A DNA stretch of 32,000 nt from Fibrobacter succinogenes subsp. succinogenes S85 (GTDB taxonomy: Bacteria; Fibrobacterota; Fibrobacteria; Fibrobacterales; Fibrobacteraceae): assembly GCF_000146505.1 (NCBI RefSeq), contig NC_017448.1:3030001-3062000 (forward strand), given 5' to 3'. The number at the start of each line of letters is the position of its first letter. The first letter of the stretch is position 1. Both the position numbers and the translations under genes were made by a program. Shown here piece by piece: positions 23,102 through 24,320 of this stretch. A model generated the notes under the pieces. That model ran no database searches, was not told the origin of the DNA, and worked only from the letters and a program-made list of their open reading frames with translations.

Positions 23102-23262
23102 AGAGCGGGCGGCGGGATTGTCAAAGTCCAGTTCCCGCTGCGCGGCTGAACTTTGACCCTTCGGGCTTGCGCTCACTACGTTCGCGTCAAGCGCAAAATT
23201 CGTCTCTTCGCACTTCGTGCATGCGCCGAATTTTGCCGCACCCTCTTCTCGGGTCCTCGTCC
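23102..23262 (-). ncRNA. candidate structured RNA, unit C1 (161 nt)
   Basis: Minus strand starts GGACGAGGACCCGAGAAGAGGG. H1 is GCAAAATTCG...CGAATTTTGC enclosing ATGCAC-GAA-GTGCG. H2 is GCTTG(A)CGC...GCGCAAGC. A CCC-GAA-GGG minihairpin follows. H3 is GTCAAAGTTCAG...CTGGACTTTGAC. The tail AATCCCGCCGCCCGCTCT resembles a tRNA 3' end. Confidence 0.4.
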
Positions 23263-23283
23263 AAATTACGATATAAAAAAAGA

Positions 23284-23305
23284 AAACCACCCTTGTAGGT
23301 GGTTT
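23284..23305 (-). terminator. bidirectional hairpin terminator after unit B1
   Basis: AAACCACC-6 nt-GGTGGTTT, flanked by an A-run and a T-run. Confidence 0.5.
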
Positions 23306-23314
23306 TTCTTTTTT

Positions 23315-23475
23315 AGAGCGGGAAAAGGGAATGATTCGTCGTCAGTCACCCGTGCTAAGGCACGGGCTGACTCCTCACTCTTACGGGCTTATCGCTACGC
23401 GATAATTCCTAAACAACTCGTACGCACTTCGTGCATCTCGTTGTTTAGTCGGCCCCTCTTCTCGGGTCCTCGTCC
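23315..23475 (-). ncRNA. candidate structured RNA, unit B1 (161 nt)
   Basis: Same 22-nt 5' end as C1. H1 is CTAAACAAC...GTTGTTTAG enclosing ATGCAC-GAA-GTGCGT (U-G pair). H2 is TTATCGC-GTA-GCGATAA. H3 is GTCA(G)CCCGTGC-CTTA-GCACGGGTGAC. The last 16 nt (TCCCTTTTCCCGCTCT) are identical to the 3' end of the adjacent tRNA-Gly. Confidence 0.4.
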
Positions 23476-23495
23476 AGTTCAGTACATAAAACAAA

Positions 23496-23520
23496 AGAGC
23501 CTAGCTTGACGCTAGGCTCT
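23496..23520 (-). terminator. Rho-independent terminator after tRNA-Gly copy 1
   Basis: AGAGCCTAGC-GTCA-GCTAGGCTCT followed by TTTGTTTT on the minus strand. Confidence 0.6.
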
Positions 23521-23529
23521 TTGTTTTAG

Positions 23530-23602
23530 AGCGGGAAAAGGGACTCGGACCCTCGACCCCGACCTTGGCAAGGTCGTGCTCTACCAACTGAGCTATTCCC
23601 GC
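23530..23602 (-). tRNA. tRNA-Gly (anticodon GCC), copy 1
   Basis: Reverse complement is GCGGGAA-TA-GCTC-AGTTGGTA-GAGC-A-CGACC-TTGCCAA-GGTCG-GGGTC-GAGGG-TCCGAGT-CCCTT-TTCCCGC-T. Full 73-nt cloverleaf, no encoded CCA. Confidence 0.95.
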
Positions 23603-23614
23603 GAGGACAGCCCA

Positions 23615-23643
23615 TATATAGAAATAAAATTTGTAGTTATAAA
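23615..23643 (-). promoter_or_regulatory. promoter candidate for tRNA-Gly copy 1
   Basis: Minus strand has TTTATA-17 nt-TATATA, ending 12 nt upstream of the tRNA 5' end. The same arrangement recurs upstream of copy 2. Confidence 0.4.
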
Positions 23644-23782
23644 GGGGTGAGTGCCGAAAAAAGTGAAATTTTTTTGAGAGTTCCGAAAGAATTTGGTCGC
23701 ACCCTCTCCCCCGAGGGGTCTCGGGTCCTCGTTCAGCATCTGACTACAAAACAAAAAAGGCGCTTTGCAGCGACTTTTTTTT

Positions 23783-23935
23783 AGAGCGAGAATGTCAAAG
23801 TCCAGTCCCCGCTTCGCGGCTGGACTTTGCCCCTTCGGGCTTGCACTCACTGCGTTCGCGTCAAGCGCAAAATTTGTCTCTTCGCACTTCGTGCATCTCG
23901 TTGTTTAGTCGGCCCCTCTTCTCGGGTCCTCGTCC
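23783..23935 (-). ncRNA. repeat unit C2 (153 nt), B/C chimera, probably defective
   Basis: The 5' part is B-type (..GGGGCCGACTAAACAACGAG..) and the 3' part is C-type (..GACAAATTTTGCGCTTGACGCG..). The two strands of H1 therefore no longer pair. H3 (CAAAGTCCAG...CTGGACTTTG) is intact. Confidence 0.35.
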
Positions 23936-23955
23936 AGTTCAGTACATAAAACAAA

Positions 23956-23980
23956 AGAGCCTAGCTTGACGCTAGGCTCT
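23956..23980 (-). terminator. Rho-independent terminator after tRNA-Gly copy 2
   Basis: Identical hairpin and T-run to those at 23496-23520. Confidence 0.6.
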
Positions 23981-23989
23981 TTGTTTTAG

Positions 23990-24062
23990 AGCGGGAAAAG
24001 GGACTCGGACCCTCGACCCCGACCTTGGCAAGGTCGTGCTCTACCAACTGAGCTATTCCCGC
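23990..24062 (-). tRNA. tRNA-Gly (anticodon GCC), copy 2
   Basis: Sequence identical to copy 1 over all 73 nt. Confidence 0.95.
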
Positions 24063-24140
24063 GAGGGTAGCCCATATATAGAAATAAAATTTGTAGTTAT
24101 AAAGGGGTGAGTGCCGAAAAAGTGAAATTTTTTTTGTTTA

Positions 24141-24320
24141 AGAGCGGGTAACGTGGGTGAGAACGGGAAAAGGGAATGATTCGTCGTCAGTCACCCGTGC
24201 TAAGGCACGGGCTGACTCCTCACCCTTACGGGCTTATCGCTACGCGATAATTCCTAAACAACTCGTACGCACTTCGTGCATCTCGTTGTTTAGTCGGCCC
24301 CTCTTCTCGGGTCCTCGTCC
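24141..24320 (-). ncRNA. candidate structured RNA, unit B2 (180 nt)
   Basis: Same as B1 apart from two changes. One substitution turns CCCGTAAGAG into CCC-GTAA-GGG (a GNRA-closed minihairpin). A ~19-nt insertion sits in the 3' tail (CCCGTTCTCACCCACGTTACCCGCTCT). Confidence 0.4.

Follow-up and report, generated by a model that had tools for sequence, protein, structure and literature searches.

Transfer-messenger RNA (tmRNA) consists of two tRNA-derived halves that are parted by a large structured insert, and in Escherichia coli the tyrT operon carries tandem repeats of ~178 bp, each containing the last ~19 nt of the tRNA. The GOLLD and ROOL RNAs are ~500-800 nt long. RtT RNA (rttR) sits in the tyrT tRNA operon and is freed from the tRNA transcript during processing (PMC4986893; bioRxiv 10.1101/2024.07.17.603846), and GOLLD and ROOL are structured RNAs of unknown function that often adjoin tRNA genes (PMC5737381). 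Here, we describe hairpin-rich units that follow tRNA-Gly genes in a 32-kb stretch of the genome of Fibrobacter succinogenes subsp. succinogenes S85 (contig NC_017448.1, positions 3,030,001 to 3,062,000; hereafter "the window", within which all coordinates are given). On the minus strand at 22950-24490, three identical tRNA-Gly(GCC) genes, called by ARAGORN and Rfam, alternate with four full units and one truncated unit. The element is real, multi-copy, structurally constrained, and confined to the tRNA-Gly loci of Fibrobacter, and it is most likely, as judged from its sequence, an undescribed tRNA-derived structured RNA.

In genomic logic, the closest analogue of the element is RtT RNA, which does not belong to the same family. 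As in the tyrT operon, the Fibrobacter units follow their tRNA, here tRNA-Gly, on the same strand and end in its 3' end. However, they match the Rfam RtT model in neither sequence nor structure, even at E<=10; the phylum and the tRNA are different; the tRNA remnant also includes the T-stem 5' strand, with the insert in the T-loop; and the four-hairpin cassette architecture has no counterpart in RtT. The flanks of the units, like those of tmRNA, appear to derive from a tRNA that was split by an insert, but the insert of tmRNA replaces the anticodon arm whereas that of the units lies in the T-loop. ARAGORN called no tmRNA, even with the cassettes excised, and there was no match to the Rfam tmRNA models. 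GOLLD and ROOL, in contrast to the units, are often found in prophages and have Rfam models, none of which matches the units.

At the gathering threshold, Rfam 15 identified only tRNA in the window and in eight diverse homologous loci, and nothing but tRNA was matched up to E=10 over 22900-24600, so that the failure of the initial annotation of this locus to recognize any Rfam family is borne out. Full-text literature searches aimed at the element found no description of it. In 2017, a survey mined the intergenic regions of Fibrobacter for structured RNAs (PMC5737381), and because its motifs that entered Rfam do not match, the element is evidently absent from it. At least one defining feature in each case sets the element apart from tmRNA, tRNA, dispersed repeats, att remnants, CsrB sponges, and riboswitch leaders, and a new RNA family restricted to one genus is credible on sequence grounds.

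The initial annotation had read four units as a candidate new structured RNA, and this reading is supported. The units lie where it had placed them, with leaders beginning at 24320 (B2), 23935 (C2), 23475 (B1), and 23262 (C1) on the minus strand, and all four have the common 5' end GGACGAGGACCCGAGAAGAGGG; B1 and C1 are indeed equally long (161 nt each, from GGACG through CCCGCTC). A fifth, truncated copy at 23734-23676, with the longer leader GAACGAGGACCCGAGACCCCTCGGGGGAGAGGG, had been overlooked, and the three hairpins of the proposed layout are in fact four: H1, H2, a mini-hairpin, and H3. It had also passed over the final 15-20 nt of each unit, which are the 3' end of tRNA-Gly with its trailer. 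The leader 14-mer ACGAGGACCCGAGA occurs in five exact copies, all on the minus strand, where 0.13 would be expected by chance (<=2 mismatches allowed), and a scan with it found no further unit copy elsewhere in the window.

A unit is composed, in order, of the leader (GGACGAGGACCCGAGAAGAGGGnnCGn), H1 (40-42 nt), H2 (17-27 nt), the mini-hairpin GCCCG(N)AAGGGU (GCCCGnAAGGGU in full units), H3 (36-44 nt), and A(N)TCCCTTTTCCCGCTCTAAAA. Both hairpins noticed previously, the inner ATGCAC-GAA-GTGCG and the mini-hairpin AAGCCCG(T)AAGG, are present, and the quoted H1 stems (CTAAACAAC/GTTGTTTAG versus GCAAAATTCG/CGAATTTTGC) and H3 stems exist and pair. The claim that types B and C differ in their stems and yet keep pairing holds for B1, B2, and C1 and fails for C2, a recombinant in which the lower stem of H1 cannot pair. 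Similarly, a hairpin plus U-tract of its own follows B1 and C1, whereas B2 has no terminator and continues straight into the promoter of the following tRNA, and the hairpin of C2 falls below a terminator-scan call.

In the predicted fold, H1 has a 9-bp A/U-rich base, positions 10-11 that are either Watson-Crick or tandem G·A, and an upper part with a 1x2 internal loop and then a 5-bp tip, with a U·G closing pair and a GAA triloop. In H3, a lower stem with frequent tandem G·A pairs leads into a middle stem of 5 bp and then a tip of 4-7 bp, these last two being separated on the 3' side by a purine-rich bulge of 3 nt. Compared with shuffled sequences, the minus strand of the window units has folding z-scores between -4.2 and -6.4, and the plus strand has values between -3.1 and -4.2. 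The leader is the sole long conserved segment that is predicted to be single-stranded. The hairpin cassette measures ~118 nt, and a unit contains one or two of them. Lengths are 129-158 nt (141-143 nt in most cases) among the 48 distinct units with a single cassette, whose stems are almost wholly different, and ~25 units of ~250-261 nt have two tandem cassettes.

Tandem G·A/A·G mismatches recur in most alleles at fixed sites of stems that are regular elsewhere, namely positions 10-11 of H1, GAA/UGA in the C-type H2, and the H3 base GAGGAG/CGACGAA (23333-23376 and 24178-24221), which suggests sheared G·A motifs that could serve in recognition or docking. By-eye comparison with K-turn, sarcin-ricin, and 11-nt receptor motifs gave no convincing fit, and a likeness of the leader to the 23S sarcin-ricin loop was deemed coincidental. 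An extended closing helix, GAAGAGGG/CCCUUUUC, can be drawn for units with the commonest leader type (La, below) and for those of Fibrobacter sp. UWEL and locus L070, without support from covariation; it is broken, as judged by eye, in units that end in CCCGTTC or CCCGCCG, and was not retained.

When whole units were aligned with MAFFT and folded with RNAalifold, nothing beyond the closing pairs GGG/CCC, the mini-hairpin, and the tip of H3 was recovered, because alleles of different lengths put the stems out of register. The stems were then analyzed within the natural ungapped length classes of H1 and H3, and in a model-based alignment of H1. In the ungapped 40-nt class of H1 (20 distinct sequences), 92.4% of the cells are paired and 9 of the 17 pairs have changed on both sides, against 33-45% pairing when the partner strand was slid. 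The covariance-model alignment of H1, with 30 distinct sequences in four allele classes, is 93.4% paired and has 11 double-changed pairs among 17; the U·G closing pair of the tip is found in 25 of these 30 sequences. The 36-nt class of H3 (15 sequences) gave 92% pairing, with 8 of 15 pairs double-changed and up to four pair types at a position, and its slid-partner controls gave 20-50%. In every test, none of 500 shuffles reached the observed covariation score. Stepwise change can even be followed within a single allele, where U-A, U·G, and C-G all occur at H1 pair 11/30. In other words, homologues retain the stems by the same compensatory change that had been noticed between the window units.

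For the question of strand, each distinct hairpin was folded with Watson-Crick pairs only and the 1x1 mismatches were classed. On the tRNA strand there are 12 G·T versus 2 A·C mismatches, and 37 purine-purine mismatches versus a single pyrimidine-pyrimidine one (T·C). The tRNA strand is also the more stable one in 45 of the 48 distinct units, by a mean of 5.2 kcal/mol (Wilcoxon p = 4e-9). The mismatch asymmetry and the folding energies therefore argue for selection on RNA in the tRNA direction, the direction that the initial annotation had assigned, and against DNA palindromes. Covariation, the strand asymmetry of G·U and G·A, and the near-constant unit length show that the hairpins are selected as RNA on the tRNA strand, and the units are very probably a real RNA-level element of that strand.

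The distribution of the units is narrow. An exact scan for the leader pattern in 185,579 species genomes gave 20 loci and one chance hit, and all 20 are from Fibrobacter (F. succinogenes, F. intestinalis, and metagenome-assembled genomes (MAGs) from rumen or hindgut); a scan of metagenomes added 35 stretches, two of them chance hits. The leader-bearing units number 110 in 57 sequences, as counted before the chance loci L027 and L032 are subtracted, and related units are known from about 60 genome and metagenome loci of Fibrobacter. Every genuine leader-bearing unit lies in a tRNA-Gly(GCC) array, on the tRNA strand and downstream of the tRNA, its leader starting ~55-65 nt past the 3' end of a tRNA or past another unit. 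No cassette was found outside tRNA-Gly arrays in the ~425 kb of loci examined, and the 110 matches of the H1 model, some of which are opposite-strand matches of the same hairpins, all lie inside such arrays. Thus, copies always neighbor tRNA-Gly(GCC) in the loci examined, and in this sequence they do not show the dispersal of the REP/MITE-type repeat that might have explained them. Loci without a tRNA end at a contig edge just upstream, with the exception of L019 (MAG RUG14562), in which the tRNA interior is missing: at 3500-3530 and 4230-4245 in minus-strand orientation, tRNA promoters are joined to CCCTTTTCCCGCTC without a tRNA body, which is probably a repeat collapse in the MAG assembly and not a real deletion.

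More divergent species were reached independently of the leader, through hemW homologues (60-62% identity) and their contigs, and they likewise carry units. Fibrobacter sp. UWEL carries only one tRNA-Gly, together with a terminator and just one unit, which has the different leader GAGAGGGACCGGACCCTCGAAGAGGGTGCG, a new 40-nt H1 allele (CTGAATTTCACC/GGTGGAATTCAG) with compensating changes, and a tip of H3 that is likewise new. A single long unit is present in L070, and the array of L072 contains additional leaders and alleles. Every lineage seen keeps at least one intact unit. Judged by these sequences, the family is genus-wide and its constant part is the cassettes, not the leader. The array lies near hemW in several lineages, with different intervening and downstream genes, and these differences rule out a fixed gene partner.

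The frame in which the cassettes sit resembles the tRNA itself. The last ~20 nt of a unit are identical to the 3' strand of the T-stem, the 3' strand of the acceptor stem, and the trailer of the tRNA, so that units close with (T)CCCTTTTCCCGCTCTAAAA, and the same terminator often follows a unit as follows a tRNA. Hairpins are flanked by ..GGGGTCGAGGGTnCG, which corresponds to an anticodon-arm remnant, the variable region, the T-stem 5' strand, and the first T-loop bases, and by A(N)TCCCTTTTCCCGCTC plus trailer; the 3' remnant ANTCCCTTTTCCCGCTCTAAAA reads as A-N-T, T-stem 3' strand, acceptor 3' strand, and trailer. The 5' acceptor strand and the D arm are missing, and no GCGGGAA-like 5' strand is present. 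The leaders form a chain of four types: La (GGACGAGGACCCGAGA-AGAGGG), Lb (La plus CCCCTCGGGGG), Ld (GGACACGAGACCCCTCGGGGTCGAGGG), and Lc (GGGTCGGATTCTCGACCCCTTGGGGTCGAGGG). Both Lc and Ld agree with tRNA positions 42-57 (GGGGTCGAGGGTCCG) in 14 of 15 bases (p<=0.0015), and the similarity of Lb has p=0.02. The two tRNA-like flanks abut at the adjacent T-loop positions G57 and A58, and the UWEL unit retains AGT, that is, tRNA positions 58-60. The simplest reading would be a tRNA-Gly copy with cassettes in its T-loop, two independent duplication junctions that met by chance being less likely, and we consider the tRNA-Gly ancestry of the frame probable.

The units are not functional tRNAs, since the three true tRNAs are all that ARAGORN and the Rfam tRNA model recognize, and intron-bearing or split tRNAs were rejected as well, because in silico excision of the cassettes from 43 units yielded no ARAGORN tRNA call. 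It should also be mentioned that the 69 copies of Fibrobacter tRNA-Gly(GCC) across the loci, including the window, have the T-arm GAGGG-TCCGAGT-CCCTT, with C at position 55. This position is almost universally U (pseudouridine 55) in tRNAs, and phage tRNA-Gly genes that share the 3' end have the canonical TTCGAGT.

How the units might be expressed depends on their surroundings. A consensus scan found no sigma-70-type promoter before any unit, and alignment of 58 distinct upstream regions showed only the terminator U-tract and a variable TAT-rich spacer, with no consistent -10/-35; each unit begins 10-25 nt after a terminator U-tract. From the absence of an own promoter, we infer read-through: transcription would start at the strong tRNA promoters and end at the terminator of the unit, and the RNA would then be freed by tRNA processing, like the RtT RNA of the tyrT operon. 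This route, suggested by analogy, has in our view an even chance of being right, and it would leave monophosphate 5' ends at GGACGAGG. We lean slightly toward the interpretation that the units encode, as genes or as co-transcribed segments, a structured RNA that is specific to Fibrobacter and arose from tRNA-Gly(GCC).

A protein-binding or scaffold role is favored for such an RNA because the stems vary freely while the loops, the U·G pair, the bulge, the mini-hairpin, and the length are kept. A stable, compact RNA would act in trans, and its partner would recognize the conserved loops, the U·G-closed H1 tip, and the 3-nt H3 bulge instead of stem sequences; we propose this role tentatively, with somewhat less than even confidence. 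By analogy, the kind of mechanism that appears most likely is multi-hairpin protein sequestering, as in CsrB/RsmZ, which the units resemble in that hairpin modules are repeated, the copy number varies, the stems evolve fast, and there is an intrinsic terminator. However, the GGA loop motifs that define CsrB/RsmZ are absent: among 150 predicted terminal loops, 56 are GNA and 15 GNRA (about half together) and GGA occurs once, GGA or AGA being otherwise confined to the H3 bulge, so that a sponge of the CsrB/RsmZ type proper was rejected. A further possibility, rather unlikely at present, is a natural "tRNA-scaffolded" RNA, in which a tRNA-Gly paralogue would have had its T-loop expanded into exchangeable four-hairpin cassettes. 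Such a stable RNA class would come from tRNA operon transcripts, would have its own protein partner or higher-order assembly, and would evolve by cassette shuffling inside one locus.

If expressed, the units would give Fibrobacter, a major degrader of cellulose in the rumen for which few non-coding RNAs are known, a structured RNA found throughout the genus. They would also exemplify an unusual route in which a copy of a tRNA gene sheds its 5' half while a modular body of hairpins grows in its T-loop. The locus would be a clean case of birth-and-death evolution of RNA genes by recombination with their parent tRNA genes, and it offers a natural series of alleles, chimeras, and one- and two-cassette forms for structure-function work. 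It would also be a second independent example, beside RtT of E. coli, of tRNA operons spawning repeat-borne RNAs, and the phenomenon may therefore exceed a single enterobacterial case.

On the contrary, several observations weigh against an RNA gene that descends from tRNA-Gly. The helix that closes the cassette (GGG/CCC and flanks) is invariant and so beyond a covariation test, its outer pairs are disrupted where units end in CCCGTTC or CCCGCCG, and the two-cassette units speak against a single compact junction fold. The double changes in the stems trace largely to a few deep allele splits and not to many independent events. Chimeric, truncated, and internally deleted copies (C2, the fifth copy, and L048_2360) imply that not every copy is selected. 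Read-through is perhaps low, because the hairpins that separate tRNA and unit have the appearance of efficient terminators. As for ancestry, the commonest leader, La, is not significantly tRNA-like on its own (p=0.2-0.36) and its descent depends on the chain La-Lb-Ld-tRNA; gene conversion from adjacent tRNA genes could be the source of the tRNA likeness of Lc and Ld; and element E, which closes the array, has no tRNA-like 3' end.

The most serious alternative, although an unlikely one, is that the units act only in cis, as degenerate tRNA-Gly duplicates that form structured spacers and protect, insulate, or aid the processing of tRNA-Gly transcripts, through 3' trailer stability, termination, or the entry or blocking of RNases, the released RNA being functionless. 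The constant position of the units after tRNA-Gly, with its 3' end, trailer, and terminators, would be expected of such spacers, as would the missing promoter, the many truncated or chimeric copies, and a copy number per tRNA that varies freely. Nevertheless, the terminators of the tRNAs precede the units, which places the units outside the tRNA transcript barring read-through; a spacer would have no need of a U·G-closed H1 tip, a 3-nt H3 bulge, a mini-hairpin, and a constant length throughout the genus; and the divergent UWEL keeps a single unit. A cis-regulatory leader or riboswitch was rejected separately, because the downstream neighbor varies (a tRNA, a convergent outer-membrane-protein gene, or, in L066 and L070, a helicase gene) and most units end in terminators.

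Base pairing of the leader would give a different kind of RNA. The 3' external transcribed spacer of E. coli leuZ, with RtT RNA, is the model for a base-pairing sponge, and by the same logic the single-stranded leader GGACGAGGACCCGAGAAGAGGG could pair with an mRNA, a small RNA, or tRNA-Gly itself, the hairpin body serving only for stability. The leader is the one long conserved segment predicted to be unpaired and is identical in many species, and by eye it can form 10 Watson-Crick pairs with the T-arm of tRNA-Gly, interrupted by two tandem G·A mismatches. Its conservation is, however, partly an artefact, the leader having been the search pattern, and the Lc, Ld, UWEL, L070, and L072 units combine quite different leaders with intact cassettes; since the invariant part is the cassettes and not the leader, we regard this explanation as improbable.

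Less probable still is an origin as remnants of small mobile or integrative elements that targeted the T-loop or 3' end of tRNA-Gly, with the cassettes as MITE-like cargo or att-arm debris and the repeated 3' ends of the tRNA as direct repeats of the att type, CCCTTTTCCCGCTC being the supposed recombination core. Insertion would fit the copies of the tRNA 3' end that bracket each unit as direct repeats, the presence of one or two cassettes in a unit, the further hairpins inserted close to the 3' end, and the repeat of 5 nt (AAGCC) on either side of the inserted hairpin of element E. Yet no integrase or transposase was found near the array (Pfam, 16 window proteins), and 2.9 million viral contigs contain neither the leader nor the 34-mer of the tRNA 3' end; an 18-mer of this end matches only complete, unrelated phage tRNA genes among them. 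With no attP copy in the viral contigs, att remnants and a phage or integrative-element origin were set aside. The confinement of the cassettes to tRNA-Gly arrays, the strand-specific G·U/G·A pattern with its covariation, and the hemW neighborhood shared by several lineages also tell against mobility. Pneumococcal BOX elements are similarly modular, with one or two internal cassettes between 5' and 3' parts that are constant, with stable hairpins, and with frequent recombinants; but BOX, REP, BIME, and MITE repeats are dispersed over many loci, whereas the units occupy one tRNA-Gly locus per genome in the sequence examined, where all genuine units and H1-model matches lie, and they have neither terminal inverted repeats nor target duplications and show RNA-strand-specific selection.

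Finally, DNA palindromes without any RNA role (cruciforms, replication or recombination signals, or palindrome-correcting mutation) or small-protein genes are already disfavored and very improbable, for although all the stems are inverted repeats that fold on both strands and a 118-codon plus-strand open reading frame spans B1 and C1, there is a strong strand bias in the types of mismatch, folding is better on the tRNA strand in nearly every unit, the conserved U·G pair becomes a C·A mismatch on the opposite strand, and the reading frame has no Pfam match and would be disrupted by the indels and cassette shuffling among homologues.

The arrangement of the array, read on the minus strand from 24487 down to 22952, is given in Table 1. 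All three tRNA-Gly promoters are sigma-70-like. The tRNA-like 3' end of B2 is interrupted by an insertion of ~20 nt, and the truncated fifth unit is fused to the promoter cassette of the next tRNA. In C2, H1 combines a B-type 5' arm with a C-type 3' arm, and the predicted fold of the unit lacks H1; the crossover point is the conserved tip of H1.

Table 1. Features of the tRNA-Gly array on the minus strand of the window
Feature	Position	Strand	Details	Called by
Promoter of tRNA-Gly copy a	24459..24487	-	TTTACA-17-TATAAT; 11/12 consensus matches	Consensus scan
tRNA-Gly(GCC) copy a	24374..24447	-		ARAGORN, Rfam
Terminator hairpin after tRNA a	24333..24372	-	AAAACAAAAAGCCTAGC..GCTAGGCTCTTTTGTTTT	Terminator scan
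Unit B2	24136..24320	-	Leader 24294-24320; H1 24254-24293; H2 24234-24250; mini-hairpin 24222-24233; H3 24178-24221; tRNA-like 3' end 24136-24177	
Promoter of tRNA-Gly copy b	24075..24103	-	TTTATA-17-TATATA; under scan threshold	By eye
tRNA-Gly(GCC) copy b	23989..24062	-		ARAGORN, Rfam
Terminator after tRNA b	23948..23987	-		Terminator scan
Unit C2 (B/C recombinant)	23779..23935	-	Leader 23909-23935; chimeric H1 23867-23908; H2 23840-23866; mini-hairpin 23831-23839; H3 23795-23830; shortened 3' end CATTCTCGCTCTAAAA 23779-23794	
Truncated fifth unit	23676..23734	-	Long leader with short hairpin GAACGAGGACCCGAGACCCCTCGGGGGAGAGGGTGCGA; stub of H1 5' arm	
Promoter of tRNA-Gly copy c	23615..23643	-	TTTATA-17-TATATA	
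tRNA-Gly(GCC) copy c	23529..23602	-		ARAGORN, Rfam
Terminator after tRNA c	23488..23527	-		Terminator scan
Unit B1	23311..23475	-	Leader 23449-23475; H1 23409-23448; H2 23389-23405; mini-hairpin 23377-23388 (G-to-A change); H3 23333-23376; tRNA-like 3' end ATTCCCTTTTCCCGCTCTAAAA 23311-23332	
Terminator of B1	23283..23306	-		Terminator scan
Unit C1	23098..23262	-	Leader 23236-23262; H1 23194-23235; H2 23166-23192; mini-hairpin 23157-23165; H3 23121-23156; tRNA-like 3' end CAATCCCGCCGCCCGCTCTAAAA 23098-23120	
Terminator of C1	23069..23096	-		Terminator scan
Terminal element E	22952..23051	-	Divergent module remnant GCCAGGCGTTACGGGCTGGCG..AAGCCCGTTAGAAGGGG..GGGGGAAGCTTCCCCC; closes array	

From the chimeras and deletion derivatives, it is inferred that the array grows, shuffles, and decays by unequal homologous recombination, with crossovers in the repeated 3' ends of the tRNA, in the terminators and leaders, and in the conserved tips of the hairpins, a pattern that indicates birth-and-death evolution. 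In the internally deleted L048_2360, a GCCCG microhomology connects the H1 tip to CCCGCTC, and this unit, like the fifth copy of the window, is fused to the next tRNA promoter cassette; some other units contain additional hairpins that resemble terminators, together with a second tRNA 3' end. One lineage (L004, L010, L014, L023/L024, L030, L046, and L068/L069) carries direct tandem units with a period of ~190 nt, in up to 5-6 copies, with no terminators between them and with the distinct spacer ..TTTATGGTCGGGACAAAAAGGCG; in the absence of terminators, these units (L004, L010, L014, and L023) are taken to be co-transcribed. The TCGGG of this spacer is able to pair with CCCGA of the leader.

Element E ends in a terminator that faces a convergent outer-membrane-protein gene, and in L008, L028, and L052 it is fused straight after H1-H2 of a unit. 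Its conserved pattern is GCCAGGCGTTAC..CTGGCG..AAGCCCGTTAGAAGGGG..GGGGGAnnnnTCCCCC, with variable inserts of 10 to >150 nt between conserved flanks, and it was seen in L005, L008, L012, L015, L019, L026, L028, L029, L033-L035, L038, L042, L044, L048, L050, L052, and L055. The AAGCC repeat brackets its first hairpin, and it may form a pseudoknot (by eye, GCCAG/CTGGC with ACGGGC/GCCCGT).

The genes that flank the array are hemW and genes for an outer-membrane protein of the MetA pathway, a symporter, and a chloride channel, and they offer no hint of a role for the units. At 6066-17674, 5-17 kb from the array, there is a group of defence-like or mobile-looking genes (WYL/WCX regulator-like, RhuM, HNH endonuclease, PLD-like nuclease, ORF6N/Rha-like, and a double AAA ATPase), for which no connection to the RNA units was found. 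Unrelated to the units, too, is a gene at 27115-30393 on the plus strand, whose 1092-aa product has lamin-tail, CotH kinase, and InlB B-repeat-like domains. In L053 (contig Ga0129307_1003344, 10350 bp), outward-facing arrays of tRNA-Gly and units with identical unit sequences lie at both ends, and they are either two inverted arrays that flank ~10 kb or an artefact of repeat assembly.

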